Shown piece by piece: positions 1,322-21,086 of a stretch of DNA of 36,738 nucleotides (its first letter is position 1; each line of letters opens with the position of its first letter). The notes beneath the pieces are model-generated. The model saw only the letters and a program-made list of their open reading frames with translations. It ran no database searches and had not been told where the DNA came from. This DNA comes from an uncultured Clostridia bacterium. GTDB lineage: Bacteria > Bacillota > Clostridia > TANB77 > CAG-508. The stretch is from NCBI GenBank assembly GCA_944392675.1, contig CALXXK010000001.1, positions 1-36,738 of the forward strand, written 5' to 3'. The translations under genes were made by a program, and so were the position numbers.

Positions 1322-4300
1322 TTATTTAAGAACATATTTCTTTATTAATACTACACCTGCTGCAATTATTCCTAATATACTTAATCCAAGTATAACATAT
1401 CCTGTATAGTCTACTGATAAACCTGTTGCTGGAACTACATAGAATTCTTCTGCTTTATCATCATCATAGTCATGTGTTTCGTCATTTCCTGGTACATAGT
1501 TACCTGGAATTGTAATTAATGTAGATCCCCAAGTTTTACCTATTTGCATTACTTCTGCATGGTTTTCTACTCTATCACCTTCATTATTTGTCATGTCTCT
1601 AACACCTATCATATCAAAAGTTGCTATATTTTGATCTTCTAATGCACTTAATGCTGAGTCTTTTAATTCTTCGATTCCTACAACTTTATTTGTAAGTGTA
1701 AGCGTTTCTTGTAATTCTGGTGCTAATAATCCGTCTGTTATTAATTCTGCTTTTTCAGCCTCACTCTTTATATGCCAATTATTTTCGTCTATACCTAAGT
1801 CATTGTCTGTATAGTCTATAATTATTTCTGGTGTTAACCTTGCTACGTCATCTTTATTTTCATGTCCTTCTCCATATAAATAGAATTCCTTCGTCGAGTA
1901 ATCTACCTCAGATATATTTGTTACTTTAAATTCGTATATTACTGTTATTCTTACTGATTTTACTAATTCGTCATCTATTTCTATTTTTACTTCATCTTCA
2001 TTTTGTTCTGATTTTGGTATATAAACAATATATTTAGGATGATTTGTTATTGTTCCATTTTCATCTATATCTGCTTCTGATAAAGTCATTCCATTTGCAA
2101 GTTTTACTGTTATTTTCTTAATTCTCTTTTCAAGCATTAATCCTTGTCTTGATCTTTCGATGATACCAAAATCTACACTATTTATTATATTTCTGTATTC
2201 TGGTTTTTTAACTGCATATCCATTTTCTATTATGATATTTCCATTTGCGTCTTCCTCGTATTGATCCATATCTGGAGTATCTGGAGTATATTCTACATCT
2301 ACCATAAATTCTGGTGTATATGAATCCATTTTTGTTATTACTTTTTCTGAATCTGCAATTTCGTTACCATATGATTGATTTATTTGTTGTTTTTTGCCAT
2401 ATGTCATTGTTTCTGTTTCTTTATCCACATTTTGTCTCATTTCAAAATCATCAACTGCATCTGATACTCTTATTTCTGTATTTGAACTTTCATCCCATTC
2501 TACTCCTGGATACATTTGCTTAAATGGATCTTTGTACCATTCTGTTTCTCTTGAAGCTCCTTTATTTTCAAATGAGCTTTTATCAACTATTGTACTCTTG
2601 TAATCTTGAACTCTATATTTGTCATCTCCCCATTCGTATTGAACTATATAGTAATCAGGGACATATCCAACAAATGAATATTCTCCTTCTGATGATGTTG
2701 TAGTTACTGCATCTACCCATTGAGTTCCATTATACATTCTAGCAACAGTTCCATCTGTTTTTAATAGTGTTACTTTTACTCCTGCTATTCCTGGTTCATT
2801 GCTATCTAATCTTCCATTTCCTTGTCTTACTCTTCCTGTTTTTAATTCTTCAGTTTCTGTATCTTTATCTTCAAAGACTTTACCATACATTTCTCTTCTA
2901 TCTTGTAATACTAGTCTAAATCCTGGTGCTCTATCTGTATCGTCTTCATAAGTATCTGTATTTCCAGGTGTTGCATTTTCTGGTGCTGAATCTGTATCTA
3001 CACCTGCATATAGCTGACCATTACTATCAGTTGTAGTATATGATGCAACTTCTGCTACATTTTCTAAGTTTTCTCTATTATTTACTGCATTTTCTATAGC
3101 TTGTTTATTTAATCCAAATTGTATATATATTTCGGTCTGCATTTGTGGAGCTACCTCACTATTTGCTGTCACTATTACCTTTTTATATTCTGAATTATAT
3201 GATTGTTCTGCTGAGCATGTTAAGTTTCCTGTAATATGTCCACTTTCATCTACTCCTGTACCTGCTCCGATTAAATAATAATTAGTGTCAAAATAATCTA
3301 CTATTGTATTAATTTTTGTTGTAAGGTTTGTTGATTGATTTTTTAGTGTTATTTTGTATGTTACTCTTGCATTTAATTCTCCATCTTTATTTGCTTGATC
3401 TACTTTATAATAGAAATCCTCTTCATATACAGGTCTTGAATATGTCATATCTGAATATTTTTCTTTAAAGCTTACTCCAACTTTAAATTCATTATCATAT
3501 TCATCAGTACCTTTTATTGCTTCTTCTTCACTATCTATAAGACTTGATTTTTGTCCATATCTATATACATTGTCAAATCCATTTATCTCTACTATTGCAT
3601 TTTCTACGTCTTTTACCAATGCCATGTCTGGATGTTCTCTTTCAATAATTCCGAAATTTACATTTTCTATTTCATCATATCTTGGATTATATCCATCAGT
3701 TAAACTGTATACACCATTTGTTGACCCTACTACATGGTATTTATCTTGTGCATATATTTCATTTGGACTATAAATTATTTCACTCTTATGATCTCCCGTA
3801 TTGTATTCTACATCTGAAGAATTTGTTATTGTATTATATCTTTGATTTAAACTATCTCTTGATGATTTTATATCTTCTGCTTTTGAACCATCATCAAGTT
3901 CTGGATGTGGTGTAACTGAGTGATATTTCATTCCATTATATTCAAATTCTATTTCATATTCTTCTATATGTTGGGCTTCTATTTTTAAATCATCTCTTGT
4001 TCCCCAGAATTTATATTTGCCTTCTTCTAGTTTTGTACCTCTACTATCTGAACCTGAATATATTTCACATATAATTTGTCCTTTTCTTTTTAATGTGATT
4101 TTTACTCCATCTACACCTTCTCCTGGAGAATATAAGTCATCACCAACCCATTGTTTTCCTTCTCTTTCATCTACATAAACTACTCCTTCGATATCCACAA
4201 ATGTTCTTTCATTTTCTATAATTCTTTCTCCAGATGTTTGTAGTCCTCCTCCTGATACTTCAAATCCAGAACCTATTTCTTTTTCTGATACATCTTGATC

Positions 4301-6601
4301 TCCGATACGTACATTAAAGTATACATTTTCGCTTCCTACTTCGTATAAAGTATATGTTCCTGGTTCTGTAATACTAGGATCATCTAATGTCATCGTAATC
4401 GTACCATCTTTTAATGAGATTCCTTCTCCAACATATTGACTTTGTGACTTTTTATAATAATCATTATATTTTTTCCATTTTTCCCATTCTTTATGATCTT
4501 TATTATATTGTTCAGTATCATGTTTTCTTCTACTTCTTCGTTCTGTTGTATAATAAATATTTCCATCTTCATCTACATGTTTTACTCTAACTGTATAATA
4601 TTCTGTATAGTAATAATCATCATAATCTGGTTCTGGTTTATATTTAGTATACTCTTCATTGTCCGGATCCCAATTCTTAATTGCGAATTTCATTCCCTCT
4701 AATGGTACATTATCTGTATCAGCAATAACTTTTATAACTCCATCTCCTGGTGGCGTTGGTTCTTCTGGTTCGTCTGGTTTATCTTTCTTTTTATTTTCAA
4801 ATACTACTTCTACTGTTTTCTTATCTCCTGATGTCAATACCACTTTTTGTGGATTATTTGTTGATAATTCATAGTTTGTAGGTGCTTTTGTTTCTTTTAC
4901 ATAGTATGTTCCTGGTTCTAATCCTTTTATAGTTAATGTTCCTGTTGAATTTGTAGTTCCTGTTTCTACTACATCAGTACATGCTACATCTTTACAAATT
5001 ATGAATTCTGCTCCCTTTAATCCTACTGTTGTTCCTTCTGCATATTTTTTAATTATTAATTGTGTATCTTGTGATTCATTATATATTACTCTTGCATTTA
5101 ATTGCTCATTCCATTGTGCCCAATATGCATCTTGAAGTACTGTTGGCATATCTACAACTGTTTTTCCTGTTTTTCTTAACATTCTTCTATACATATTGTT
5201 CAATTTTTCCATAGCTTGACTTTTGCTATCCATTTCTAAAACACTATAGCCTTTTTCGTCTATTAAATATTGTAATACAAATGTAATTAGATTATATTTA
5301 TTTGTAAATTTCTCTGCATCAGAATTTGCTCCGTTTGTCATAATAGTATCATAATATCCACTATTATCTATATCTTTTATAATATTTTTCACATCTGTAC
5401 TATCAGGTCCATAATTTACACCTGCTAATACATACACCAGAGTACTTATATAATCTTTTAATTGTTTACTTCCTGTTAAATTTTCATAATATTTATTGTT
5501 ATTCGTGTATGTTATACTTTTTACAACATCATATCGGTATTTGTCACCTACTGTTACATTAGGAATTGTTCCTTGTATTTTATATCCATCTGGCGTTTCT
5601 TTTTCTATAATTTGGAATACATCACCATCTTTTAGTCCTGCTATTTCAACAGTACCATTTGCATTTGTTGTAAATACCTTAGCTGAACTTGCACTTTTTG
5701 TATATGTAACTGTACTACCACTTGATTTGATATAATATCCATTATTAGGTGAACCTACCTTTTTTAATACAAATTTTGCTCCTTTTAAAGGTTTTTGAGT
5801 ATCTGCGTCCATTTTTACTAATTTTATACTTTTTCTTTTTGTTTTATAACTAGTAAATACTATTCTATCTTGTCCTGCAGCAGATCTTAAAATTATAATA
5901 CGAACATCTTTGTCATCTTTTGCTGCTGATGCTGCTTTTGAATTACATGCATCCCAAAATGTTTTATTTTTCTCATAATATCCATCGTAATCATTTGCTG
6001 GATACCATATTTTGTATTCTCCATAATGGCTTGTTGAATAATGCCATAACCATCCTTTTGTATCATGATTCCAATAATACCATACAAGCATGTCTCTACC
6101 TTGTCCTGATTTTCCTCCTATTGAAAATTGAGTTACATAATTTTTAACAAAATATGCCATTGTATTAAATCTTTTCATTCCACTTGTATCTGATGATGGT
6201 ACATTAACTATTGTGTTTCTAAATGCTCCTATTTGTGCTGTTCCATCTGCATAAACATCTATTATATTTTTTATTTCAAATCTATCTTGACTTGCATTTG
6301 CGTGGCTATTAATACAGTTCCAATTATAATTTGGATATATAACATCACCTGTAAGTGAGTTACTAGAACCTGTTCCATATTTTATTAATGCATTTTGTAC
6401 ATTTATATTCATAAATTTTTCAGGATCATTTTTAGCCCATTCGTATAGCTCTGTTACTGTTTTGGGTAAAGTTTTATCTTTATTGGCCGCATTTATTTCA
6501 TCTTGTGTTGGTTGATATGCTGCTAAAGAAGGTTTATTGAAAACCACAAATAACATAAATACAAATATTAAACTAATTAGAATTTTTATTGATGTTTTCA
6601 T
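1322..6601 (-). CDS. Giant cell-wall-anchored adhesin (1759 aa). It has a signal peptide, a Cys-containing thioester-like N-domain, SpaA/Cna-B-type domains, an SdrD-B-like domain, DUF11-like modules and a VPATG sorting signal.
   Basis: N-terminal signal peptide (MKTSIKILISLIFVFMLFVVFNKPSLAA). Cna-B/SpaA signatures include KGAKFVLKK..TTNANGTVEIAGLKDGDVFQIIEKETPDGY and LKGAEFIICK..TNSTGTLTIKGLEPGTYYVKETKAPTNY. The SdrD-B-like stretch is IEGVVYVDEREG..GVDGVKITL. The C-terminus is VPATG plus a hydrophobic stretch plus KKYVLK (1325-1435). The ATG lies 1 nt after the stop of the upstream gene, with AAGGAGG inside that gene's end. It is a paralog of 11927-15931. Confidence 0.85.
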   Translation of the reverse strand: MKTSIKILISLIFVFMLFVVFNKPSLAAYQPTQDEINAANKDKTLPKTVTELYEWAKNDPEKFMNINVQNALIKYGTGSSNSLTGDVIYPNYNWNCINSHANASQDRFEIKNIIDVYADGTAQIGAFRNTIVNVPSSDTSGMKRFNTMAYFVKNYVTQFSIGGKSGQGRDMLVWYYWNHDTKGWLWHYSTSHYGEYKIWYPANDYDGYYEKNKTFWDACNSKAASAAKDDKDVRIIILRSAAGQDRIVFTSYKTKRKSIKLVKMDADTQKPLKGAKFVLKKVGSPNNGYYIKSSGSTVTYTKSASSAKVFTTNANGTVEIAGLKDGDVFQIIEKETPDGYKIQGTIPNVTVGDKYRYDVVKSITYTNNNKYYENLTGSKQLKDYISTLVYVLAGVNYGPDSTDVKNIIKDIDNSGYYDTIMTNGANSDAEKFTNKYNLITFVLQYLIDEKGYSVLEMDSKSQAMEKLNNMYRRMLRKTGKTVVDMPTVLQDAYWAQWNEQLNARVIYNESQDTQLIIKKYAEGTTVGLKGAEFIICKDVACTDVVETGTTNSTGTLTIKGLEPGTYYVKETKAPTNYELSTNNPQKVVLTSGDKKTVEVVFENKKKDKPDEPEEPTPPGDGVIKVIADTDNVPLEGMKFAIKNWDPDNEEYTKYKPEPDYDDYYYTEYYTVRVKHVDEDGNIYYTTERRSRRKHDTEQYNKDHKEWEKWKKYNDYYKKSQSQYVGEGISLKDGTITMTLDDPSITEPGTYTLYEVGSENVYFNVRIGDQDVSEKEIGSGFEVSGGGLQTSGERIIENERTFVDIEGVVYVDEREGKQWVGDDLYSPGEGVDGVKITLKRKGQIICEIYSGSDSRGTKLEEGKYKFWGTRDDLKIEAQHIEEYEIEFEYNGMKYHSVTPHPELDDGSKAEDIKSSRDSLNQRYNTITNSSDVEYNTGDHKSEIIYSPNEIYAQDKYHVVGSTNGVYSLTDGYNPRYDEIENVNFGIIEREHPDMALVKDVENAIVEINGFDNVYRYGQKSSLIDSEEEAIKGTDEYDNEFKVGVSFKEKYSDMTYSRPVYEEDFYYKVDQANKDGELNARVTYKITLKNQSTNLTTKINTIVDYFDTNYYLIGAGTGVDESGHITGNLTCSAEQSYNSEYKKVIVTANSEVAPQMQTEIYIQFGLNKQAIENAVNNRENLENVAEVASYTTTDSNGQLYAGVDTDSAPENATPGNTDTYEDDTDRAPGFRLVLQDRREMYGKVFEDKDTETEELKTGRVRQGNGRLDSNEPGIAGVKVTLLKTDGTVARMYNGTQWVDAVTTTSSEGEYSFVGYVPDYYIVQYEWGDDKYRVQDYKSTIVDKSSFENKGASRETEWYKDPFKQMYPGVEWDESSNTEIRVSDAVDDFEMRQNVDKETETMTYGKKQQINQSYGNEIADSEKVITKMDSYTPEFMVDVEYTPDTPDMDQYEEDANGNIIIENGYAVKKPEYRNIINSVDFGIIERSRQGLMLEKRIKKITVKLANGMTLSEADIDENGTITNHPKYIVYIPKSEQNEDEVKIEIDDELVKSVRITVIYEFKVTNISEVDYSTKEFYLYGEGHENKDDVARLTPEIIIDYTDNDLGIDENNWHIKSEAEKAELITDGLLAPELQETLTLTNKVVGIEELKDSALSALEDQNIATFDMIGVRDMTNNEGDRVENHAEVMQIGKTWGSTLITIPGNYVPGNDETHDYDDDKAEEFYVVPATGLSVDYTGYVILGLSILGIIAAGVVLIKKYVLK

Positions 6602-6602
6602 T

Positions 6603-9600
6603 TTAAACCTCCTTTCTTCTTTTGATGTAAATTATTCCTCCAACAATCATCAATATCACTATTAATGATAAGCTAATTGCTAATACTACTTTACCTGTAC
6701 TTATTGAAATTATTACTTCTGCTTTGCCCATGTCATCTTCTGTTTCTACATTGTTTCCATATGTTGAGTCTATATCGGCAATATTTAAGTCATTGCTTGC
6801 TTTTGCAATTTCAGCTTTATTTATACTATTCCCCAAATTATTTTCATTCATTGTTTTTGTTAATACTAATTTTATTGTCTGAGTTTCCCCAGGATTTATT
6901 GTTGTGTTTGTTAAGCTACTATTATGTAATTCCCCTTCTCTTGTTAAATACCAATCTGGATTTGATTTTTCATCAAATTGTAAATCATTTGGTATATAAT
7001 CTACTATTTCATTTACTTGTCCTGGAATTTCTCCTTCATTAGTTATTTTTAAATCATATTCTATTGTTACTACTGTTCCTGCCAATTCTTTTGCTTTTAA
7101 TTCCACTTTTGCTAATGTTGCATCATTATACTCTGTTACTGTTTTTGATTTACTATTTTGTACAGTTATTCTATTTATAGTTTTCTTTAATGATAAGTCA
7201 AAAATATTTTTCTCATAAAATCCTGCATCTATATTTCTAATTTCTAAATTACTTATTGTTATTTCATTTGTTATCGCTATTTCTTTATCTTGTCCATTTA
7301 TATTTACAACTTTAGATATAACATCAGAATTTGTTGATGCATCTGTATTTTGTACTTGATATTGTGTTACTGTATATTTATTTGTATCATACTCAAATCC
7401 TACCATATATGAATTTCCTGTTAAATTATCAAATTTATAGAATCCATTTTGATCTGTAGTAGTTTGTATTGTAGCTCCATTTTCATCTGTTGCTAATTGT
7501 CCTGTAGCTCCATCAAATAGCAATACTGTCATTCCACTCATTACTGATGAATCATCTCTTATACCATTCTTATTACTGTCTATCCATGCTATTCCACTTA
7601 GGGCTTTAAGTCTTTGACTTGGATTACTTGGATTTTCATTTATACCATCTTGCAATTTATATGTTATTACATTTGACTCTGTATAATAATCTCCACCCAT
7701 TGCTGAAATAACATTTTCAAATTGTTCTAAATCATATAAATTTTCTCCTACTACTGCATTTATTACTAAATCTATTTCTGAATATGCTCCTAATAAATAA
7801 TTAGCGCTTAAATATCCTTCTCCTGTATCACTATCTTTCTCATATTGAGCATCTGCTATTCTTTCTCCATCTTTCATTAAATAAGCTTCTGTTACATTTA
7901 ATATTGATGATACATTGTCTTCTATCAATAAATCTGCTTCTATATTAGATGTATTTCTTATATTAGCTACAAATTGAATTTCGTCACCTTCTTTAACAGA
8001 TTCTCCATCTATACTTGCTGTTTGTACAATTTCAAAATTTGCAATTCTATTAACGTCAGATTTTGATATTACATTTGAGTAATATTGATTTCCATTTATT
8101 GTAGCATTACATGAGAAATCATATGTTTTCTCTGTTTCACCATTGCCTATAGGTTCAACATATAAGTCTAAAACAAGTGTTAATGTCTCTTCAGGATCAA
8201 GTTTCTTTATATTAATTTTAATATTATTATCTGTAAATTCTTCATATGTGTAATTATCTCCATTTACTCTGTATTCATCTCTTAATGTTACTCCATCTGT
8301 TAATGATAAATTTAAAGTTATATTTTCTAATGTATTTTCAGAAATATTAGTAATATTATATGTAAATGAATTTTCAGAACCTGCAGAAAATATTACTTCT
8401 TCATTTTTTGAATATTTTGTTGTTAATTTTAGCTCTGCATCTTTTATTTTATTTTGCATAATATCTTTTGAAAGTTCAAAATCATCAGCTTTCATTTCCA
8501 ATTTTCCTATAGTTACTTCATTTTCATTTTTTGCTTTATTAATAGTAAATTCATATTCAAATTCTACAGTTTCACCATTTGTTAATACATCTTTTTTAAA
8601 TCCTTTTTCTGTTAAAGTTTCATCTTCTTCATAATTTGTAACTATTACTGGATTTCCTGTAACCGCATCTGGAACTTGCTCTTTTTTCATATTGAAAAAT
8701 GTAACATTATTATTTCCATCAGCATCTTGTTGTTTTCCTACTACAGAAAAATTAGTTAAATCCTTTCCTGTATTATTTGTTAATGTTATTATATGTTTTA
8801 CTGTTTGTCCTTCAAAAATTTCTTCTCCATCTTGTAATTCTTTTCCTCCAGAAATTGTTGTTATTTTTAAATCTATTCCTTCTACATTTTCTTCAATACT
8901 TAATGGTGATATTTGACTATTTTCTCCATCTCCTATTAATTTTAATGTTGTATAGTCCTCAAATTCTTGATTATTATATTCATATTGTAATCTTGTTATT
9001 TGGAAATATGTTTCATCATTTTGAACATTTTCTGGTATTTCAATTTTATAACTAACATTTATTACTTCTGATGGTCTTAATGTTGGTATCGATATTTTAA
9101 ACATTTTTACTTGTGACAAATCTTCTACATTTTCATACCATTGTTCACTATCAATTGATATGTTTTCTGTTGCATATAATACTTTTGCATCTGGATAATT
9201 TGTTTGTATTTGTCCTAATAATTTTGTTTGAATTGTTGATTTAAATTCATCACTTTCGTTTGTGGTATCTATTTTTCCTACTATAATTACATTATTTATA
9301 TCTGTTTCATAATTATTTATTACTGCTGTAGTAACATTTGCTTCTTTTCTTTGGGCATTTGTATCTAATTTACCTGTAACTGCCTTTTGTGATAATGTTT
9401 CTATTTGCTCGCTTTGTTCATTATATCCATTCATCATTCCATACATTAAAACACCATATTTAGAATTCATTTTTATATCTGCATTTACTGTATTTTCTTC
9501 ATTGTTTCTATTTTCATTTGTATATTTTAAAGTTATAACAGAATTTTTTGTAGGTGTTAATTTATTAAGTGTGATATTTGCGCTTATGATTATTTGTATT

Positions 9601-11447: not shown

Positions 11448-11822
11448 ATGCTTTTCCTCCCTTAATTTACTATATTTATAGTAGAATATTTATACTTATT
11501 TATCAATGGTATTTTTTTGCAAGAATTTATGTTTATCTACGGATAGGGATTTTTAGCTATTTTTTACGTTTTTTTAATAATTTTGTTACACTATTGTTAC
11601 ATTTTTTATTTAACCTTCTATTATTTATTTTTTTATTGTATACATTCTTTGTATTCCTTAAATCCGTTAGCTTTAAAAGCTTTTTTTCAGTTCATAACTT
11701 AGACTAACCCCTGTTATCTGAAAATATATAATTAGATTGTAATATAAGAAACAATAGCGACATGATTTAAATGCTCTATTATTTTAGTTAATTAACATGT
11801 CGCATCTTTGTTCGCGCGCCAA

Positions 11823-11850
11823 ATTTTACGTAATTAAAATCTGTGTACAA
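11823..11850 (-). promoter_or_regulatory. Candidate sigma-A-type promoter for the 11447-1322 bicistron
   Basis: The minus strand reads TTGTAC-16 nt-TAAAAT (-35 at 11845-11850, -10 at 11823-11828). It lies just downstream of the 11891-11919 terminator. If real, the leader is about 370 nt. AT-rich DNA produces such matches by chance. Confidence 0.3.
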
Positions 11851-11890
11851 CTATTTTAATTATAGGATATATAATTCCATATAATTAAAT

Positions 11891-11919
11891 AAAACTGTTG
11901 ACTTTTAATCAACAGTTTT
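11891..11919 (-). terminator. Rho-independent terminator candidate after CDS 11927-15931
   Basis: AAAACTGTTGA-cttttaa-TCAACAGTTTT is an 11-bp perfect stem starting 8 nt past the stop codon. It is followed on the minus strand by a T/A-rich tail (ATTTAATTAT). Confidence 0.55.
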
Positions 11920-11926
11920 ATTTATG

Positions 11927-14900
11927 TTATTTATTTAAGACTTTTCTCTTTATGATAATTATTCCTACAACTCCGACTGCTAATGCTCCTACTACTATAC
12001 CAATAATCATTCCGAAATTTCTATTTTGTCCTGTTGGTGGTGTTACAATTACTGGTGGTGATTGGTCGTCATCTATTTCATCTTCACCTTCTGGAACATA
12101 GTTACCTGGTGTTGATGGTATGTCTCTTCCTCCTGTTTTGTTTACTTCTACTAATTCAGTATAGTTCGTTAAATAAATTTCGTCTGCTACTGATAGTATT
12201 TTTGAAACATTTAATGTTACATTTGCATTTTCTGTAGGTTTTAAGTTTTGCTCTGCTAATTTTTCAGTATATAGTATTATGCTGCCTTTTACACTATCTG
12301 TATTATATACTTCTTCTGAAACTAGTTTTAATTGTTGTATTTCTTCTACTGTTTTTTGTTCCCATCCTTGTTCTTCATTATTTTCAGTATCAAAAGCCCA
12401 ACCTTGGTCTAAGTAATCTATAATTCCTGTTGGTGATATTGTTACTAATTTGTTTGGATCTTTATCTGTTCCGTATTTATAGTAATCTTCACTTATATAA
12501 TCTAATTCACTGTTATTTTTAGCTGTTATCTTATATTCTACTTCTAGTAATGATCCTTGCATTAATTCTTTGTCAATTTCTACTCTTACAAATCCTTTGC
12601 TTGTATCTTTAGGTGGTTGTGCTGTAACATGATTAGATTCTTTTATTATATTTCCATTGTCATCAAATTCTGCGTCTTCAATTACTTGTCCATTTGCTAG
12701 AGTAACTTTTAGTTTGCTTACTCTCTTAACTAGTTCTATTTCTTGTCTTGGTCTTTCTACAATACCGAAATCTACATTTTTAATTTCATATACAAGCTCA
12801 TCTCCAGTTGCATCTGTTACTGCCATATCTGTATTTTCTACTGTTATTCCCATTGTTGGTGTAGTAGAATCCATTAATACTTTTGTTGTTTGTGATGAAT
12901 TTGTTATATTTTTTAATTCTTCGTCTATTTCTTGTCTTTGACTGTAATCGTCTACAGCGTCTGTCCATCTAGTGTCTACATCTTTTTTGTACCATTCTTT
13001 GTCTTGTGTATTTTGAGAATATCTGTCTTGGTTATATACTGTTCCTTTATAGTTTTGTACTGTATATGTTTCGTCTCCCCATGTGTATGTTAAAGTATAA
13101 TCTCCTGGAATGAATCCTGCAACAAGGAAGTCTCCGTTTTCATCAGTATTTGATTCGTAAACTTTTCCTGTTCCTGTATTTTCTGTTAATGTGATTTTTA
13201 CTCCTGGTATTCCAAGTTCACCATCTTCATATGCTCCGCTTCCTAATCTTTCTTCTCCTGTTTTTAATTCAGGTGTTGTTCCGTCAAGGAATACTTTACC
13301 CATTAATTTTCTTCCATCTGCTACTTCTAATCTTAATGCTGGAGCTCTATCTGTATCATCTTCAAATGTTGTTGTATCTCCTGGAACTGCATTTCCTGGG
13401 TTAGAATCAACATCTACACCTGCATATACATTTCCTTCTTTATCAAATGTTGAATAAGAATTAATTTCTGCTACATTTTCTAATAGATTATTTTGTCCTG
13501 CACTTGCTCCTTGTTCATCTATTATTCTTGCTACAGCTTCCCTATTTAATTGGAATTGTACATATATTTGTGTTTGTTCTTGTGATGCTATTTTACTATC
13601 TGATAATTCTATAATAGCTTTATTATATTCTGAGCTATATCCTTCATCTATAGTATAATTTAAACTTCCTAAAACATTTCCGCTTTGGTCTATATCTGTT
13701 CCTGCAGCTACTATAGTATAATTTTTATCATAGTAATCAACTACTGAATTTACTTGTGATACAAGGTCTGTAGCTTGATTCTTTAATGTGATTTTATATG
13801 TTATTTTTACTTTTAATTCTCTGTCTGAATTATTGTCTGTATATTCATAGTCTGATTGATATATTGCTCTTGTATATGTCATATTAGAATATTTTTCTCC
13901 AAATTTAACACCTACATTAAATAAATCTTCTCCTCCATTTTGTGCTTCTCTTGTTTTTTGTTCATACATATATGTATGTCCATATCCATTAATTGATAGA
14001 TTTACATTATTTAAATCTTTTACTAATGCTAAATCTGGTTGTTCTCTTTCATATAGTCCTAAATTAATATTCTTTATTTCTTCTTCTCCTACAACATAAT
14101 GATCTATGATGTTATATCCTGTTTGTTCTGTTTCTGCTGTAATTGGATAATTTCCTTTATTTGCTAATGTCAATACCTCGGCATTTTCATCTTCATATGT
14201 TACATTATTTAATTTAGTTTTATATTCTCCAGAATTTTTAGTATATGATAAATCATGTACTTTATTTCCATTTTCATCTTTTGTTATACCTGTATCTGTT
14301 CCTGTACCTTCTATACTGCTAAATCCGTTATTAAATAATGCTCTTGTTTCACTGCTTTCTGCTGCTTTTGAACCATTATCTTTATCTATATATGGTACAA
14401 CATTTGTAAATGTTAATCCATCATATTCAAATTCTATATAGTAATTTGGCAATTCTGCTACTAATACATCCACAAATTGATATGCTCCTTTATCAGCTGT
14501 TGTTGTTTCCATAATAGTATTTCCTGATTTATCTTTTAATCTAACGGTTATTCCATTTAATAATTTATCTCCATAATCAAATTCACCATCATTATATAAA
14601 TCATTTCTTATTGCTTGTTTTTCTGAAATTTTATCTAACCATACATATCCTGAAAGTTTTATGTATTTTTGGATATTTGGTACTTTTAATTCTGATGTTT
14701 TGTCTATTACAACTGAACCTGCTATTCCTTCTGATATTATCTCATATCCATAATTAGGATTTTTAGTTTCATAAGCTACATATGTACCAACTAATAAGTT
14801 TTTAACTGTAAATTCACCATTTTGATCTGTTATAAATTCTGTTGCTTCATCTCTACTAGATACATATGATATAGTTCCATTAGAATTTTGTTTTACATAT

Positions 14901-15931
14901 TCTCCTGTTTCTTTGTTTTGTAAAATAAATCCTACACCCGATAATTTAATTTCAGAATTTTCTACTATTTTTATTACTTTTAAATTTCCTAATAGTGGTA
15001 TATTATAATCAAAATTTTCTTTAATTGTATCATTTTTTGTATATGAATCTCTAGCAATTAAATTTTGTGTACCATTTTGATTTTCTAAAAACCATATTTT
15101 TGCACATTTTACTTCATATTTACAACTTCCTGACATTCCTGTTATTTCTGTTACACCTTTATCTGCTGGTATTAATGCATAAAATGATTTTCCTGATTTG
15201 ATTTCACTAACTTTTGTGTCTACTAATTCTTTTCCTTCGTATCTATTATATATTACTCCACTGATTGCTTTTCCATTTTGATCATATACAGATATATCAC
15301 TTAATTTTCCTGAGAATGTCCATTTAAATGGTCCTACTTTTATATATGATTTTCCATTTTTAGTTACTGTACTAGCTTTTATTTTATCTTTATTTGTGTT
15401 GTCTTCTAAACTTTGATTTTCTTTAATATTTGTAGCATAGTTTTTTGCTTCTGTTATTAGATAGTCATATTGTGATTCTCCAGCATTTCCTACCATAAAT
15501 CCATTAGGTATATTATATTTTTGTCCAACTTTTCTTCCCCATTCTGGAAGATAACTCCATAGTGCATTTGCTACTGGTCCTTCACTTTTGTCTATTCCTT
15601 GTGATTCTGTTCCATTATCTTTTGATAATATATATGCAAATACTCCATTTTCCCATGCTGTTATTTTTTTGTTATCAGCTTGGTTTATTGATTGTAGTCC
15701 TTCTATTGTTACTATTGAATTTACTTTATAATTTACTTTCCAAGCTGGTAAACTCTGACCATGCTGTACACAAAATAGATTAGGATCTGCCACATAATCA
15801 AAATATGACTTAGATAATGTATCTCCAATTTTGTAATTTGTATATGATGCTGCTTTTGATATATTAGCTATAGATAGCATAGCTGTAATTATAATTAGTA
15901 TTAATATAATTTTATTTTTTATCTTTTTCAT
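11927..15931 (-). CDS. Giant cell-wall-anchored adhesin (1334 aa). It has a signal peptide, a Cys-containing thioester-like N-domain, SpaA/Cna-B and SdrD-B-like domains and a TPPTG sorting signal.
   Basis: Signal peptide MKKIKNKIILILIIITAMLSIANISKAAS. RBS AAGGAGGT lies 8 nt upstream. The Cys motif is LFCVQHGQSLP. The Cna-B signature is LSGVGFILQNKETGEY..TDQNGEFTVKNLLVGTYVAYETKNPNYGY. The SdrD-B-like stretch is LSGYVWLDK..GITVRLKDKSGN..TTADKGAYQF. The tail is TPPTG plus a hydrophobic stretch plus KRKVLNK (11930-12043). There are long co-linear matches to 1322-6601, for example EREQPDLALVKD / EREHPDMALVKD and TYKITLKNQATDL / TYKITLKNQSTNL. Confidence 0.85.
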   Translation of the reverse strand: MKKIKNKIILILIIITAMLSIANISKAASYTNYKIGDTLSKSYFDYVADPNLFCVQHGQSLPAWKVNYKVNSIVTIEGLQSINQADNKKITAWENGVFAYILSKDNGTESQGIDKSEGPVANALWSYLPEWGRKVGQKYNIPNGFMVGNAGESQYDYLITEAKNYATNIKENQSLEDNTNKDKIKASTVTKNGKSYIKVGPFKWTFSGKLSDISVYDQNGKAISGVIYNRYEGKELVDTKVSEIKSGKSFYALIPADKGVTEITGMSGSCKYEVKCAKIWFLENQNGTQNLIARDSYTKNDTIKENFDYNIPLLGNLKVIKIVENSEIKLSGVGFILQNKETGEYVKQNSNGTISYVSSRDEATEFITDQNGEFTVKNLLVGTYVAYETKNPNYGYEIISEGIAGSVVIDKTSELKVPNIQKYIKLSGYVWLDKISEKQAIRNDLYNDGEFDYGDKLLNGITVRLKDKSGNTIMETTTADKGAYQFVDVLVAELPNYYIEFEYDGLTFTNVVPYIDKDNGSKAAESSETRALFNNGFSSIEGTGTDTGITKDENGNKVHDLSYTKNSGEYKTKLNNVTYEDENAEVLTLANKGNYPITAETEQTGYNIIDHYVVGEEEIKNINLGLYEREQPDLALVKDLNNVNLSINGYGHTYMYEQKTREAQNGGEDLFNVGVKFGEKYSNMTYTRAIYQSDYEYTDNNSDRELKVKITYKITLKNQATDLVSQVNSVVDYYDKNYTIVAAGTDIDQSGNVLGSLNYTIDEGYSSEYNKAIIELSDSKIASQEQTQIYVQFQLNREAVARIIDEQGASAGQNNLLENVAEINSYSTFDKEGNVYAGVDVDSNPGNAVPGDTTTFEDDTDRAPALRLEVADGRKLMGKVFLDGTTPELKTGEERLGSGAYEDGELGIPGVKITLTENTGTGKVYESNTDENGDFLVAGFIPGDYTLTYTWGDETYTVQNYKGTVYNQDRYSQNTQDKEWYKKDVDTRWTDAVDDYSQRQEIDEELKNITNSSQTTKVLMDSTTPTMGITVENTDMAVTDATGDELVYEIKNVDFGIVERPRQEIELVKRVSKLKVTLANGQVIEDAEFDDNGNIIKESNHVTAQPPKDTSKGFVRVEIDKELMQGSLLEVEYKITAKNNSELDYISEDYYKYGTDKDPNKLVTISPTGIIDYLDQGWAFDTENNEEQGWEQKTVEEIQQLKLVSEEVYNTDSVKGSIILYTEKLAEQNLKPTENANVTLNVSKILSVADEIYLTNYTELVEVNKTGGRDIPSTPGNYVPEGEDEIDDDQSPPVIVTPPTGQNRNFGMIIGIVVGALAVGVVGIIIIKRKVLNK

Positions 15932-15952
15932 TAAAATTTACCTCCTTTCTTC

Positions 15953-18900
15953 CTATATTTCATCTATTTTTATATTATTCTTTTTTCTTATAACTACAAG
16001 TGCTACTATTGATAACATTACAACTATTATTATAGCAATTCCAACATATACAACTCCACCTGTTTTTATACTTAGAATAACATCTGCATAGTCCATATCA
16101 TTTTCGCCTTGAACTTTATTTCCTGGTGTTGAGTTTATATCACCAACGCCTAATTCATTATATGCTTCTGCTATTTCTGCTGTATTATTTACACGTCCTG
16201 TATTATTTTCTGTCATTGTTTTTGTTAGTGTTAATGTCAATGTTTTTGTTTCACCTGCTGCTATTTTATCATTTGCTATACTTGAATTATATAATACTCC
16301 GTCTTGTTGATACCAATCTTTGTTCATTTCTGAACTAAATTGAAGATCATTTGGTAAGTAGTCTGCTATTTTTCTAGCATATCCTTCTACTTCTCCTTCA
16401 TTTTTTACATTTATTTTATATTCTATTATTACTGTTGTTCCTTTTAATTGTTTTGCATCTATTTCTACTTTTGCTAATTTTTCATTATTAAATTCTTTAA
16501 CTGTTGTTCCTGCTGAATTTTGTAATATAATTTTGTTCACATATTTTTCTAATTTTAAATCAAATGTTTTTAATTCAATTAGTCCTATATCAATATCTGA
16601 AATATTATTATTATTCATTGTTATTATATCTGTTCCTGTTACTTGTTTAGTATTTCCTTCTATATTTAATTCTGTTGTCATTGCATCTGAATTTTTAGTT
16701 TCATCTGCTCCTTCTACTTTATATTTAGTAACTGCATATTGTGATGTATTATATTCAAATATTACAATATATTGTCCATTTGCTATATTGTCTAAAACAT
16801 ACATACCTTGTGCATTTGTTGTGGTTTCAAGTGTTTTTCCTGATTTGTCTTTTACTAAATTATTTGTTTGAGTATTTAATAATTTTACTTTTACATTATC
16901 TAATGTTTTTTCATTATCATCTTTTATTCCATTTGCATTTTCATCAAACCAAGCTAATCCACTAATCATTCTTGATCCTTGTGCGATGTCATTATTTTCT
17001 GTATTGTTATCATTATTTTCGTCGTTTCCTGTATTATTATTGCTGTCTCCTGATTGTGTTTCTTCTATTATATGATTTATAGTATCTGTTCCTGCCATTG
17101 TTTCTCCAGCAATTTCTACATATGCTTTATTTGAAATTGCTTCTGCTTCTTCTCTATCATCTGCTTCGTTAACAATTGTTTGTATTTTTACTTCACAACT
17201 ACCATTTGCCATTATGCTTAATCTTATTTCTACTTGATTTGTTTCTATTCCTTCAACAGGTTGTCCATCTACTGTTACATTAGTTATTGTTAATTGTTCT
17301 GGAATAGTATCTTTTAGAACTACATTTTCTGCTCTACTTTCTGAACTATTATTTACTACTATTGTATATTCTATTATGTCTCCTGCTTTTACATATGAAC
17401 TTTGTGTATTTGATGTCATTGACATTGTAATATTATAGTTACTTATATTATCTGTCCAAACATTAGATTTATATTCTTTAGAAGCTTCGTCTTTAGCTAT
17501 TACATATAATTTAGCTTCATTATTTTTTGTTGTGCTTATATCCATACTATATGATAATACTTTTACTTCTCCTGGTTCTAATGAACCTATATTTACTTCT
17601 TGAGCATATTGCATTTCTTCTGATTGCATATTTTCATTAACATTTTCTTTTTGTATTTCATCTTCTGGATTAAATACTCCTTCAGTTCCATCTGCAATTA
17701 TTTCATCATCTGACACTTCTTGACTTCCCATTCCTGTATGTAATGTTAATTTTTCTACTTGTAAGTTATCTGATATATTTGTTTCTACTTTTACATTTTC
17801 TTGTTTAGCGTCTGAAATATTTTCTATAATTGCATAATATTGAACTGCTCCATTTCCATATAAATTTATACTTCTATCTGTAACTCTTTTTACACTTACT
17901 CTTAGATTTCCTTTTTCTGTTGTTGTCTGTACTTCATTAGAATCGTTTATTGCTTCTCCATATTTTGTTTCTATTGAATTTGTAAGTGTTGTATTTTCAG
18001 CTGTATCTGAATTTACTCTTACTTCATATTCTACAATTGCTTTTTCACCAACCGCTATTTTTTCTATTGTTTTTGCGAATTTATCTGTTTCTATTTCTTT
18101 GTAATATGATGAACCTGTATATTCATAATTTGGTTCTGGTTCTACTAATGTTGTTCCTTCAGGTATTTGTCCTGTTACTACTGCATTTTGTACTTCTTCT
18201 GAACCTGTATTAGCAATTTCTATATGATATTTTATAACTTCTCCATTTTTTACTTTTGTATCTGAAGTTACATTTTCATTTCCTATTGTTGCACTTAATG
18301 TTGTTTCTATTTTTGGTCCTACTCCTGTATCCATTTCGATATCTGTTGATTCGATTGTATTTGATACATTTGTTGCACTATTAGTGTAACTTACGTCATA
18401 TCCTTCTGTTGCTTTTTGGTTATATTCAAGGTTTTCTGGAACTTTTATACTATAAGTACCTACTATACTTTGTTGTGGTTCTAGATTATTATTATATTCT
18501 ATTAAGTATTTTTTACTATTTTGAGTTGCATCTTGCGTCCATCCATTTTCAGTGTTTTGTAAGTCATTTGTTGCATTTTCATTATCTGAATAATAAATTG
18601 TTGCATTTTCCATGTTTATTCTAGTTGCTAGTTTTGCTCCTAAGTTGTTTGATTCACTATCAGTAGGAAATGTTCCTAATACTTTCATATTATTTATTGG
18701 TTCTGGATTATTATTAATTATCTCTAATTCTACTTCTAATTGTTTTCCATCTTCACCTTTTCCCATTGATATTGTTTGTGTTTTTTCTTGCCCTACTGTT
18801 TCTATTCCTAAGTCTTTAATGCTATTTATTGCTGTTACATCTGTAGGTGCTACAATTTGTATATCTTTAGAAGCTGTACCTACTTCTTCTCTATTTATAT

Positions 18901-20839
18901 ATTCCATTATTATTGGTTTTGTTGCAGTAGCTGATTTTTTATTTACAATAATATCTGCATTTATAATTATTGTTGCTCCTTCTATTGATTGTTCTTTATA
19001 TTGTGTTTGTTTACCTGCTAATGTTATTGTCAAAACTCTTCCATTTACTGTATAATTTTGTATTGCTAATTCATTTTCATAAACTAAATCTACACTATTT
19101 ATTCTTATTTCTTCTACTTCTTCTGGTAAATTGATATTTATTGTTGGATTTTCATATAAATTAAATTCTTCACTATTTGTACTTAATATAGCTTTCATTT
19201 CAATATTGTTTTCAACTACTGTAGATAAAGTATCTTTATTTACTTCTAATCTAGCTGATGTTTTTGTTTCATTTAGAACTATTTCTGAAGTAGCTTGTGT
19301 TTGTATACCTAATGAATATCTAACTCCATTTGTTACATTTAAATTATATTCTGCTATTGCTGTTGTTTGTATTTTGTTAACATTTCTTAATAAATTTACG
19401 TCATTTTGTTTTATTGTTTTTTCATTATTGAAATCTATTGTACCTTCTTTTATAGGTGTTGATGTTCTTATTTCTATATTTCTTGCTTCTACATTTGAAT
19501 ATTCAATAACTATATTTCCATTTTCATCAGGTGTTGTTGATGAATCTACTCTTGCTATTCTTTGTCCATCTTGATTTATTATTTCTATAACTCCACTTTT
19601 TCCAAAAATTTCATCAAAGCTTTGTTTACTAAAAGATGTTTTTGTATATATTACATTTGCATCTTGTAATATATTTTCATTTGTTACAAAATTATTTTGT
19701 TCTTTTACACTTATATATTCTGCTGTATTAGCTAAATTTACTACTAATTTTGTAGTTGTATTATAATTTCTATCTATACCAGAATATAATTTTCCTTTAA
19801 ACATTTGTTGTTCATTATTTTGTGTTGATATAGCTATTGTTGTATCTTTTTCTTCATTATTTAATGTGATTTTTGTATCATTTGCTTTAATTTCTTTGTC
19901 ATTATATAATGTTAAAGTTTCTTGTGATGTTATTTCTATATCACTTAAATCTATATCTTTTTCATATATATATGTTAATATGATATTTTCATTTCCAGAT
20001 TTTTTCCAATTAATTTTATTGTCTTGTGTCAATTCATTTGAAAATTGAAATTCTATATATCCTTCTTCATTTTTATATTCATATGATGTCATATTGTTTA
20101 GGTTAACAACTTGAACAACTTCTGGTTGTTCTTTTTCTATTTCTGGAATATTAATTTTTGAATTTATGTTTTTTATTGGATAATTATTATTTTTTAATCC
20201 TAAATTTAATGAAAATTGTATAATTCTTTTTTCTTCTCCATTAAATTTCATGACTTTATTTGTAATTATATCTATGCTATTTTCTATATTTTCTGGTGCA
20301 TCTACTTCAATTAATTTTAAGTTCACTTCTCTACTTGAATCTATTGTTATATTTCTTTCTGTACTATCTTTGTATTCACCAGTTAATGTTATTTTACTAT
20401 TCATGTTTAATAAACCTGTATCTATTTTATCTTCCATTACAGGTTTTATTTTTAAATCAATTTCTGCATTTGTTCCTGCATTTAATTGATTTAAATATAT
20501 CTTATTTCCTTCGATTCTATTTACATACTGATTTTCCGTTCCTACTAATGTAAAGTTACTATTTGATAGTTCCACTTGTCCGTTGAAATATCCATCTTTT
20601 TTAACATTTACATTTATGTATAATATCTGTTCTTGTTCTTCTGATGTAACCTCTAAGGAATTTGTATTTTTTCCTTCTTCATCTTTAAAGTACGCATTAA
20701 ATTCTATATTAGCATGGTTTGTAGCTAATATGTCTGCAGCATAACTTATAAAAGTTGAACCAACTAAAATAAAATTGGCAATTGTCATTGTTAATATTAA
20801 TGCTACTACTATACTAATTTTTAGAAGTTTGTTTTTCAT
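15953..20839 (-). CDS. Giant cell-wall-anchored repeat protein (about 1628 aa). It has an N-terminal TM/signal, DUF11-like modules, an SdrD-B-like domain and an SIKTG sorting signal.
   Basis: The track ORF starts at 20863, but AAAGGAGG lies 7-8 nt upstream of the ATG at 20837-20839 (MKNKLLKISIVVALIL...), so that start is preferred. DUF11 signatures include VKNGEVIKYHIEIANTGSEEVQNAVVTGQIPEGTTLV and VKAGDIIEYTIVVNNSSESRAENVVLKDTIPEQLTI. The SdrD-B-like stretch is ISGLAWFDENANGIKDD..NVKVKLL..TNAQGMYVLDNIANGQYIVIFEY. The tail is SIKTG plus a hydrophobic stretch plus RKKNN... (15956-16072). Confidence 0.85.
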   Translation of the reverse strand: MKNKLLKISIVVALILTMTIANFILVGSTFISYAADILATNHANIEFNAYFKDEEGKNTNSLEVTSEEQEQILYINVNVKKDGYFNGQVELSNSNFTLVGTENQYVNRIEGNKIYLNQLNAGTNAEIDLKIKPVMEDKIDTGLLNMNSKITLTGEYKDSTERNITIDSSREVNLKLIEVDAPENIENSIDIITNKVMKFNGEEKRIIQFSLNLGLKNNNYPIKNINSKINIPEIEKEQPEVVQVVNLNNMTSYEYKNEEGYIEFQFSNELTQDNKINWKKSGNENIILTYIYEKDIDLSDIEITSQETLTLYNDKEIKANDTKITLNNEEKDTTIAISTQNNEQQMFKGKLYSGIDRNYNTTTKLVVNLANTAEYISVKEQNNFVTNENILQDANVIYTKTSFSKQSFDEIFGKSGVIEIINQDGQRIARVDSSTTPDENGNIVIEYSNVEARNIEIRTSTPIKEGTIDFNNEKTIKQNDVNLLRNVNKIQTTAIAEYNLNVTNGVRYSLGIQTQATSEIVLNETKTSARLEVNKDTLSTVVENNIEMKAILSTNSEEFNLYENPTININLPEEVEEIRINSVDLVYENELAIQNYTVNGRVLTITLAGKQTQYKEQSIEGATIIINADIIVNKKSATATKPIIMEYINREEVGTASKDIQIVAPTDVTAINSIKDLGIETVGQEKTQTISMGKGEDGKQLEVELEIINNNPEPINNMKVLGTFPTDSESNNLGAKLATRINMENATIYYSDNENATNDLQNTENGWTQDATQNSKKYLIEYNNNLEPQQSIVGTYSIKVPENLEYNQKATEGYDVSYTNSATNVSNTIESTDIEMDTGVGPKIETTLSATIGNENVTSDTKVKNGEVIKYHIEIANTGSEEVQNAVVTGQIPEGTTLVEPEPNYEYTGSSYYKEIETDKFAKTIEKIAVGEKAIVEYEVRVNSDTAENTTLTNSIETKYGEAINDSNEVQTTTEKGNLRVSVKRVTDRSINLYGNGAVQYYAIIENISDAKQENVKVETNISDNLQVEKLTLHTGMGSQEVSDDEIIADGTEGVFNPEDEIQKENVNENMQSEEMQYAQEVNIGSLEPGEVKVLSYSMDISTTKNNEAKLYVIAKDEASKEYKSNVWTDNISNYNITMSMTSNTQSSYVKAGDIIEYTIVVNNSSESRAENVVLKDTIPEQLTITNVTVDGQPVEGIETNQVEIRLSIMANGSCEVKIQTIVNEADDREEAEAISNKAYVEIAGETMAGTDTINHIIEETQSGDSNNNTGNDENNDNNTENNDIAQGSRMISGLAWFDENANGIKDDNEKTLDNVKVKLLNTQTNNLVKDKSGKTLETTTNAQGMYVLDNIANGQYIVIFEYNTSQYAVTKYKVEGADETKNSDAMTTELNIEGNTKQVTGTDIITMNNNNISDIDIGLIELKTFDLKLEKYVNKIILQNSAGTTVKEFNNEKLAKVEIDAKQLKGTTVIIEYKINVKNEGEVEGYARKIADYLPNDLQFSSEMNKDWYQQDGVLYNSSIANDKIAAGETKTLTLTLTKTMTENNTGRVNNTAEIAEAYNELGVGDINSTPGNKVQGENDMDYADVILSIKTGGVVYVGIAIIIVVMLSIVALVVIRKKNNIKIDEI

Positions 20840-21057
20840 TTTTATTCCTCCTTTAAAAAACATTTAAAATTAATATTTCCTTTATATAATATAAATTTTT
20901 TATAAAAAAATCAATTATTAATATTAATGTATTTTTTTATCATTTTTTGTTGTTTTACGGCTTTACACATTGCATATATAGATGATTTATATTACATTTT
21001 TATAACATTTTTGTAATAATTTGTAATATTCCTTATTTGCATAAAACACCTATCTAT

Positions 21058-21086
21058 ATTATATCGCTTTTTTATTGATTTTTCAA
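21058..21086 (-). promoter_or_regulatory. Candidate sigma-A-type promoter for the 20839-11927 bicistron
   Basis: The minus strand reads TTGAAA-17 nt-TATAAT (-35 at 21081-21086, -10 at 21058-21063). It would give a leader of about 210 nt. The match is consensus-like, but the background is AT-rich. Confidence 0.35.

Follow-up and report, generated by a model that had tools for sequence, protein, structure and literature searches.

The stretch of DNA analysed here (the window; 36,738 nt, G+C ~27%) comes from an uncultured Clostridia bacterium (contig CALXXK010000001.1). In its left half it carries four very large genes, which form two bicistronic units, R1-T1 and R2-T2, and encode giant proteins with the hallmarks of surface adhesins. 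All four lie on the minus strand, exactly where an earlier reading of the same sequence (hereafter the original prediction) had placed them, and all peptides quoted there are present in the translations. The open reading frame (ORF) of R1 can be read over 15953-20863; we chose the start at 20839 (MKNKLL), which is preceded by a GGAGG ribosome-binding site and agrees with the N-termini of the orthologues. Each of the four proteins has an N-terminal signal peptide and ends in a C-terminal motif, a hydrophobic segment and a basic tail. The features discussed below are collected in Table 1.

Table 1. Genes, protein regions and expression signals of the R-T locus, in window coordinates (aa, amino acids; L010, L012 and L037 are loci of close relatives)
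Feature	Position	Strand	Basis or remark
spoIIE, 5' part (N-terminus coded)	1..695	-	conserved downstream border of the R-T locus
Terminator-like hairpin 3' of T2	1265..1287	-	
T2 gene, 1759 aa	1322..6601	-	ORF list; T1 paralogue in the C-terminal ~1000 aa
T2 sorting-like signal: VVPATGL, membrane helix, KK tail	1325..1459	-	
T2 N-terminal head, aa 28-257, possible short thioester domain	5831..6520	-	motifs kept in close orthologues
R2 gene, 1614 aa	6603..11447	-	ORF list; co-linear paralogue of R1
R2 sorting-like signal: ISISTGK, membrane helix, KRRK tail	6606..6725	-	
Promoter-like site of the R2-T2 operon, TTGATA-17 nt-TACTAT	11478..11506	-	region kept in L010, L012, L037
Terminator-like perfect 16-bp hairpin directly 3' of the T1 stop codon	11886..11924	-	
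T1 gene, 1334 aa	11927..15931	-	ORF list, Pfam, orthologue alignment, structure model of the head
T1 sorting-like signal: VTPPTGQN, membrane helix, KRK tail	11930..12046	-	TIGR01167 15.5 vs cutoff 15.9
T1 predicted thioester-domain coding region, aa 28-318	14978..15850	-	structure model, Foldseek, invariant Cys/Gln
T1 Gln289 codon	15065-15067	-	
T1 Cys54 codon	15770-15772	-	
R1 gene, 1628 aa	15953..20839	-	ORF list, Pfam, orthologue alignment, structure model
R1 sorting-like signal: LSIKTGG, membrane helix, RKK tail	15956..16075	-	TIGR01167 16.6 vs cutoff 15.9
R1 C-terminal CLIPPER/DUF11 domain core, candidate isopeptide triad	16163..16429	-	Pfam, alignment
R1 N-terminal all-β region, aa 37-840	18320..20731	-	AlphaFold2, Foldseek; no Pfam family
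Promoter of the R1-T1 operon, TTGAAA-17 nt-TATAAT	21058..21086	-	at least 80% conserved in 56 loci
sA and sB, two small divergent ORFs flanking R1	21315..22158	+	synteny kept, also in ~60 related loci
minC	22166..22786	-	conserved upstream border of the R-T locus

Inside each pair the genes are tightly coupled, and the original observations on this point could be verified: R1 and T1 are separated by 21 nt with AAAGGAGG inside the gap, R2 and T2 by a single nucleotide with AAGGAGG within the final R2 codons, so that the ribosome-binding site of T2 lies in the upstream gene. The promoter of the R1-T1 operon is located ~210 nt upstream of R1. A terminator and a promoter had also been proposed between T1 and R2, and we found the 16-bp hairpin and a conserved promoter-like site there. 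It is a reasonable inference from this layout that each R-T pair represents a single transcription unit with translational coupling; being co-transcribed and coupled in this way, R and T would be produced together. The stoichiometric partnership and the fibre that had been suggested are conjectures drawn from the gene coupling.

A scan of one genome per species returned at least 557 R-encoding stretches. The best 80 of these all belong to metagenome-assembled genomes, whose labels read uncultured Clostridia, Clostridium, Eubacteriales, Bacilli or simply bacterium; the gut samples behind them were taken from humans (including Hadza and Nepali), chickens, rabbits and mice. Metagenomes are rich in homologues of T1 and R1, none of which is named. 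We classified all ORFs in 91 fetched loci, which correspond to 85 distinct species-level places, and found a constant gene order in these 85 loci: MreD, a penicillin-binding protein (PBP), MinC, two small divergent ORFs, R and T, followed by SpoIIE or by another R-T pair. Nearly all of the 101 R-to-T junctions measure 12-29 nt (mode 20-21) or 1 nt, and the T-to-R spacers range from 207 to 516 nt. Not a single complete R was found without a T behind it. A lack of such conservation as neighbours in other genomes had been named in advance as the result that would weaken the R-T partnership; co-conservation holds without exception in the 85 loci. Judged by this synteny, the R-T pair is a core locus between minC and spoIIE in a large clade of uncultured gut Clostridia. 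The locus is also carried by the relatives L001 and L002 (contigs of 1.6 and 1.5 Mb) and P0370 (1.6 Mb). The ~1.6 Mb contigs of relatives are probably whole small genomes, in which case the R-T locus (9-20 kb) would occupy ~0.6-1.2% of the genome.

Pairwise alignment confirmed R1 and R2 as paralogues, co-linear from end to end over ~1700 alignment columns with 29% identity (E 2e-143). For T1 and T2, the proposed paralogy applies to the C-terminal ~1000 aa (33% identity, E 1e-147) and not to the N-terminal regions, which are different. The last domain and the anchor region are common to R and T, and nothing else is. At the DNA level, the best-conserved parts of the paralogues are 66-72% identical (blastn), and the longest exact matches amount to 15 nt for R1/R2 and 19 nt for T1/T2, which is as much as shuffled controls give and agrees with the description of the shared identical runs as short.

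Among the informative loci, ~16-18 contain a single pair and ~45 at least two pairs, so about 70% have a second pair. A neighbour-joining tree of 114 R proteins unites most of the first-position copies in a single coherent clade and places most second-position copies in separate, long-branched clades. R2 of the window joins the second copies of the close relatives L010, L012 and L037, together with those of distant species, among them forms with a length of 1800-1926 aa; the second R of another close relative, L007, is of a different type. Because about 70% of the informative loci hold a second, faster-evolving pair and the R tree splits the copies, the duplication is ancient, and both module copy number and tree thus agree with the old tandem duplication of a two-gene module that had been suggested. 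On the same grounds, one pair is conserved and the other is fast-diverging, variable in length and head, and sometimes lost or replaced. In the loci L050, L091 and L067, the conserved R1-type pair stands second, with the divergent pair upstream, which means that the order of the two pairs is not fixed.

T1 is predicted to consist of a signal peptide, a class II thioester domain, a SpaA (CnaB-type) domain, SdrD_B/prealbumin-like domains, two CnaA/CLIPPER-like domains, a TPPTG motif, a membrane helix and a basic tail. Bacterial thioester domains are defined by the motifs [YFL]C-phi-zeta, phi-Q-zeta-phi-phi and TQxx-phi-W (PMC6194298), and the Cys and Gln motifs of T1 match the first two of these. 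Cys54 (FCVQ; FCVE or YCME in relatives) is invariant in 24/24 orthologues and so is Gln289-Asn290 in TQNLI (20-24 orthologues aligned). As for the third motif, Trp125 is invariant within PV(Q/A)NA(I/L)W, which reads PVQNAIW in the orthologues and PVANALW in T1; another residue stands at the place of the Thr of TQxx-phi-W, and T1 itself is also without the Gln. This third motif is described as not essential (PMC6194298). The strict Cys motif was detected in 64 of 76 near-full-length T ORFs, and most of the other 12 have either a close variant (YCTE, FCTE, YCTQ, YCLG, YCIL) or a truncated or miscalled N-terminus.

The structure prediction for the T1 head points in the same direction. An AlphaFold2 model derived from a 20-orthologue alignment reached a pLDDT of 90.2 and is arranged in the order N-terminal strands, helical bundle, ~80-residue β-sandwich and long β-hairpin, with Gln289 at the turn of the latter. 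The succession of a strand/helix part, a β-sandwich insert and a long hairpin corresponds to the topology of class II thioester domains (PMC6194298), which combine a β-barrel and a helical lobe with a β-sandwich insert and a slipknot hairpin. When the model was compared to the PDB using Foldseek, the four best matches were class II thioester domains, namely those of EfmTIE86 (6fwy) and BaTIE (6fwv), with E-values from 4e-7 to 1e-4 and probabilities of 0.97-1.0, while all lower matches were weak and unrelated. By fold and motifs, the Cys-containing domain that had been noted in T would therefore be a class II thioester domain in T1. Within T, conservation is lowest in the head (0.42-0.52 vs 0.6-0.73 in the stalk), as expected for the head of an adhesin.

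Behind the head, Pfam searches revealed SpaA domains in T1 (2.8e-10) and T2 (1e-30), with 40.6-106 bits against a cutoff of 23.1, as well as SdrD_B/prealbumin-like domains in both. SdrD_B (PF17210) is found in all four proteins (39-51.6 bits, cutoff 29.7). Of the hidden Markov model searches that had been recommended, those for SpaA, SdrD_B and DUF11 thus returned matches, and the thioester-domain model did not. The SpaA triad K321/E388/N419 of T1 is invariant in the orthologues, and K1069/N1256 are invariant in its last CnaA-like domain; these residue sets are consistent with isopeptide bonds in the T stalk. We classify T as a divergent and very long thioester-isopeptide-ester (TIE) adhesin, an assignment that is firm for T1 and plausible for T2.

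T2 resembles T1 only in its C-terminal ~1000 aa. The N-terminal region is longer and different, contains two SpaA domains, and the protein terminates in VPATG, a membrane helix and a basic tail. The T2 head is shorter than the T1 head and unrelated to it in sequence. Close orthologues share two motifs with it, WNCIN with Cys96 and, immediately ahead of the first SpaA domain, GQDRIV with a Gln; compared to [YFL]C-phi-zeta, the first position of NCIN is atypical. No Pfam family matched the head at permissive thresholds, and no relative of the N-terminal 238 aa was found at E<=1e-3 in a database of 5.8 billion proteins, although orthologues exist on L010, L012 and L037. The head type appears to be rare or poorly indexed. 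From its motifs, we consider the T2 head only plausibly a thioester domain.

R1 comprises, in this order, the signal peptide, ~7 predicted β-sandwich domains (aa 37-840) and, in its C-terminal half, a CLIPPER/DUF11- and bMG10-like region, an SdrD_B domain, a C-terminal CLIPPER domain, LSIKTGG, a membrane helix and a basic tail. Together with the Pfam-matched domains, we estimate a total of roughly 13. R1 matches PF01345 (DUF11, now CLIPPER) with 45.9 bits (cutoff 24.6, E 8e-12) and TIGR01451 with 59.2 bits (cutoff 24, E 2.9e-16); the bMG10 match in the C-terminal half is weak. R2 gave no DUF11 match at E<=0.01, though it is co-linear with R1. CLIPPER is a CnaA-like isopeptide domain that is typical of fibrillar adhesin stalks, and the solved CLIPPER domain contains a Lys-Asn-Asp triad (PMC12617251). 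In the last CLIPPER domain of R, K1432, D1493 and N1552 are invariant in 114/114 R proteins, which makes them a candidate parallel to this triad.

For the N-terminal ~820 mature residues of R1, AlphaFold2 (pLDDT 84.7) predicted β-strands only, folded into ~7 sandwich domains. Foldseek matched this region to the immunoglobulin (Ig)-like domains of PrgB, to antigen I/II C123, to integrin legs and to the MG domains of α2-macroglobulin, and no Pfam family was found in it. A profile of the region collected 1469 cluster representatives, of which the sampled clusters are unnamed, and in most of the full-length matches listed the match starts at about residue 40 of a ~1600-aa protein. R is nearly Cys-free, strongly acidic and near-constant in length (1590-1673 aa) at ~50% identity among homologues. 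None of the four proteins R1, T1, R2 and T2 contains internal sequence repeats according to self-BLAST. The description of R as a repeat stalk is therefore right structurally only: it holds for a diverged β-sandwich array of fixed length and fails at the level of sequence repeats.

Both R and T are predicted to be exported and C-terminally anchored and contain domains of adhesin stalks, in agreement with their designation as surface proteins. Their C-terminal motifs are family-specific. In T orthologues (n=120), [VI][TI]P[ASNP]TG is kept and followed by ~6 residues, the membrane helix and KKK. R orthologues have [IL][ILV][SG][ILV][RK]TG in 119/120 cases, and TGG runs straight into the membrane helix; the T-G pair is conserved to 100% in 114 R proteins, including paralogues of ~30% identity. 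TIGR01167 (LPXTG anchor) is the best-scoring family for all four tails. A literature search on the C-terminal motifs yielded nothing relevant.

The reading that we prefer, with a probability of about 0.7, is that R and T are two co-expressed, separately anchored fibrillar surface proteins, T being thioester-tipped and R a headless rod. The two operons R1-T1 and R2-T2, each equipped with its own promoter and terminator, would be transcribed from a conserved sigma-70-type promoter and would each give rise to a pair of giant, acidic, Sec-exported proteins, retained at the surface by a C-terminal signal in which a conserved xxxTG motif precedes a membrane helix and a Lys/Arg tail. T would act as a TIE-type fibrillar adhesin, whose N-terminal thioester domain (class II in T1) could bind its target covalently through the Cys-Gln thioester and would be presented on a stalk in which CnaB-type (SpaA), SdrD-B/prealbumin-like and CnaA/CLIPPER-like domains are strung together and isopeptide bonds probably add stability. 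R would be a rod of constant length (~1600 aa) that has ~7 predicted β-sandwich domains within its first 860 aa, CLIPPER/DUF11 and SdrD-B domains behind them and no recognisable head; it might serve as co-adhesin, spacer or partner. The two separately anchored fibrils would jointly attach the cell to its host, to mucus or to other cells, and the second pair would be an old paralogous copy, faster-evolving and variable in length and head type. In this scheme, gene structure, paralogy, synteny, domain content, the predicted thioester fold with its invariant residues and the conserved C-terminal motifs come from the analysis itself, whereas we infer sortase anchoring, the formation of thioester and isopeptide bonds, the adhesive role and the cooperation of R and T.

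Several findings weigh against this reading. The TM-scores of the T1 head to thioester domains are low (~0.3) with an rmsd (root-mean-square deviation) of ~10 Å, and both the Pfam thioester-domain model at permissive thresholds and sequence searches of the PDB miss the head; PDB sequence searches with T1, R1 and a profile of the T1 head returned nothing. The class II fold of T1 is accordingly supported rather than proven by the model, and because of the low TM-scores and the negative sequence searches its assignment relies on ranking, topology and motifs. A profile comparison of the T1 and T2 heads was not significant and aligned just the Gln-bearing strand. No distal adhesive or binding domain was identified in R1, whose first 824 mature residues are predicted to be all β-sandwich with generic Ig stalks as Foldseek matches, so R can be called an adhesin only by analogy. 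With regard to anchoring, none of the four proteins contains LPXTG, the motifs being LSIKTG, SISTG, TPPTG and VPATG, and TIGR01167 scores 15.5-16.8 against a cutoff of 15.9 with a match that starts only at TG. The SI[RK]TG motif of R is without the Pro of clostridial (S/P)PXTG signals, which are cleaved by SrtB of Clostridioides difficile, and this enzyme did not cleave the Pro-less NVQTG in vitro (PMC4155245). Neither in the window nor across 1.84 Mb of related loci did we find a sortase ORF; when all ORFs of these loci were scanned for the TLxTC motif, the sole hit, a protein of 337 aa, proved to be an IstB/DnaA-type ATPase. With no LPXTG, TIGR01167 scores at the cutoff and no sortase nearby, the proposal that all four are sortase substrates is not established. 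Since the motifs of T and R differ and no sortase-like ORF was seen in the loci, we regard sortase anchoring as likely for T and uncertain for R; in either case, membrane helix and basic tail would hold the proteins at the surface. R especially, or both proteins, might even be tethered by the C-terminal helix only, TG then being a structural feature of the membrane interface. In addition to the uncleaved NVQTG and the lack of a sortase in the loci examined, this would fit the R motif, which is without Pro and follows directly on the last CLIPPER β-strand with no wall-spanning spacer, its TG abutting the helix. On the other hand, motif, hydrophobic stretch and basic tail together make up the classical sorting signal, TIGR01167 is the top family for the four tails, and full T-G conservation among R proteins of ~30% identity exceeds the needs of a plain anchor. 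We consider mere tethering unlikely, yet worth keeping in mind.

The strict co-conservation and translational coupling in the 85 loci could also be explained by one covalent, pilus-like two-component fibre, in which a sortase would join the Thr of the T xPxTG motif to a Lys of R, with R as the stalk or base and T as the thioester tip. The different C-terminal motifs of R and T would suit such a fibre, as pilins handled by different sortases carry different motifs, and the first strand at the N-terminus of first-position R proteins carries a conserved Lys (EFxAYFK). Thioester tips are moreover known on pili, e.g. Cpa (PMC6194298). However, some R proteins have Glu at this position and the long forms have no counterpart to the Lys, which weakens its candidacy as an invariant pilin-type acceptor. 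No YPKN-type motif was seen, the score obtained with the pilin model NF033902 (28) stays below the cutoff (95), and R exceeds known pilins about threefold in size. Pilus loci normally include their own class C sortase, but no sortase gene stands beside the pair in any of the 85 loci. Finally, T comes with a long stalk and a membrane anchor of its own, and the original picture of T as a tip on an R stalk is thus not required to explain T. We judge a pilus-like fibre improbable and place just as little confidence in a giant heterodimeric fibre, in which an unlinked sortase would join T to R and R to the wall via two motif fates; if true, a large clade of uncultured gut Clostridia would possess a thioester-tipped filament of ~3000 residues as a core organelle. 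A further explanation is that the pair is mainly a structural component of the envelope (surface coat, spacer or cell-cell connector) and not a host adhesin, which would account for the core status, the fixed length and the neighbouring genes for cell shape and division. The place between mreBCD-PBP-minC and spoIIE is indeed invariant, R hardly varies in length and has no head domain, and 9-20 kb are spent on the locus even in genomes that are probably small (~1.6 Mb). Thioester heads, in contrast, capture targets in all characterised cases (PMC4450167, PMC6194298), the variation of the second pair in heads and length fits a diversifying contact with external ligands, and the transcription units are separate from the neighbours, with divergent small ORFs between. 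A mainly structural role therefore seems quite doubtful to us, and we retain the reading of two separately anchored fibrillar proteins.

In Streptococcus pyogenes, the thioester protein Cpa forms the tip on a Spy0128 pilus shaft. The R-T locus shares with these pili (Cpa cited in PMC6194298) a gene for a thioester protein beside one of the stalk type and different sorting motifs, but it is without class C sortase or pilin motif, polymerisation is not indicated, and R and T are both giant proteins with complete stalks. T is closer to the class II TIE proteins (BaTIE/BasC of Bacillus anthracis, EfmTIE86 and SaTIE; 6fwv, 6fwy; PMC6194298), with which it has in common the Cys/Gln motifs, β-sandwich insert and long hairpin of the T1 head, CnaB-type domains after the head and a C-terminal sorting-type signal. 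It differs from them in being 2-3 times longer (1334-1759 aa), with extra SdrD-B and CnaA/CLIPPER-like domains, in escaping Pfam and PDB sequence searches, in a thioester that is here predicted, in an xPxTG instead of an LPxTG signal and in a gene position always directly downstream of that for a rod protein. The TPxTG/VPATG signals of T, with hydrophobic stretch and basic tail, also fit the xPxTG pattern of C. difficile SrtB substrates (PMC4155245, PMC4591827), which include collagen-binding-type adhesins with non-LPXTG signals; in contrast to the S or P of these substrates, position 1 is T, I or V in T, and the R motif has no Pro.

R can be compared to CLIPPER adhesins such as B9T28_05395 of Acinetobacter silvestris (PDB 9IFR; PMC12617251) on the basis of its DUF11/CLIPPER and TIGR01451 matches, the invariant Lys/Asn/Asp in the C-terminal copy, the long multi-domain stalk, the signal peptide and the sorting region. 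In contrast to these adhesins, it has a unique N-terminal β-sandwich array of ~800 aa without Pfam family, no tandem repeats, no identified adhesive head, a fixed length and an SI[RK]TGG signal. The best structural matches to the R N-terminus are the Ig-like stalks of PrgB and antigen I/II (PDB 8beg, 7l0o, 3qe5), likewise strings of β-sandwiches; with 7-9% sequence identity and low global TM-scores, they indicate a generic likeness in fold and not membership in a family.

TIE adhesins (T) and CLIPPER-type fibrillar surface proteins (R) are thus already known kinds of protein. New are, first, the obligate association of R and T in one module that occupies the same core-genome position throughout a large uncultured gut clade; second, the ancient duplication of this module, which gave one conserved and one variable pair; and third, the conserved motifs other than LPXTG together with the R N-terminal family, which has no name so far. 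Studies of thioester adhesins, which bind their targets covalently, have dealt almost exclusively with pathogens; here, divergent and Pfam-invisible candidates occur in several hundred species-level genomes of gut Clostridia, and the R-T pair is a strong candidate for the main attachment apparatus of this poorly known commensal clade. The R N-terminal family (1469 clusters, those sampled unnamed) could enter domain databases, and processing at the two conserved non-LPXTG motifs is directly testable.

With respect to regulation, no riboswitch or leader was detected when the whole window and the T1-R2 spacer were scanned against Rfam. Cyclic di-GMP riboswitches are used for C. difficile adhesins; such a control was considered here and found no match in these scans. 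Phase variation by an invertible promoter was rejected, as the inverted repeats upstream of R1 and R2 are merely AT-rich pairs of low quality. Short direct repeats of the TGTAAC/TGTAAT type are present upstream of R1 (approx. 20985-21030) and of R2 (approx. 11585-11610), which might represent a shared regulator site or chance in AT-rich DNA. The T1-R2 spacer also includes, at approx. 11700-11880, a ~200-nt stretch that occurs in this genome only; L010, L012 and L037 do not have it. Part of the stretch is rich in G+C and includes a short inverted repeat (GCGACATG ... CATGTCGC). The stretch gave no Rfam match and may be a small insertion.

The small ORFs sA and sB, which follow minC at the place where minD and minE would be expected, are Asn-rich, and sB has a C-terminal membrane helix. 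Their conserved cores are ...DPRxNLLxSLKPYLR..KK.K.DQYANL for sA and EILGIKLYLDDLIILGLLFFLY for sB; no match was obtained for either in Pfam and NCBIfam at permissive thresholds. The remainder of the window had been described as housekeeping genes, and our gene identification agrees: it encodes prfA, a metallophosphoesterase, a ZIP transporter, a PcrA/UvrD helicase, cotF, an M23 peptidase, mecA, DUF4321, radC, mreB, mreC, mreD, PBP, minC and the 5' end of spoIIE. At the right end (35789-36738, minus strand), an ORF listed with 296 aa contains PCRF and RF-1 domains and extends in frame upstream to the window end. An interpretation as release factor 2 (RF2) with a programmed frameshift was rejected for this gene, as direct reading identifies it as prfA (RF1) running off the window.

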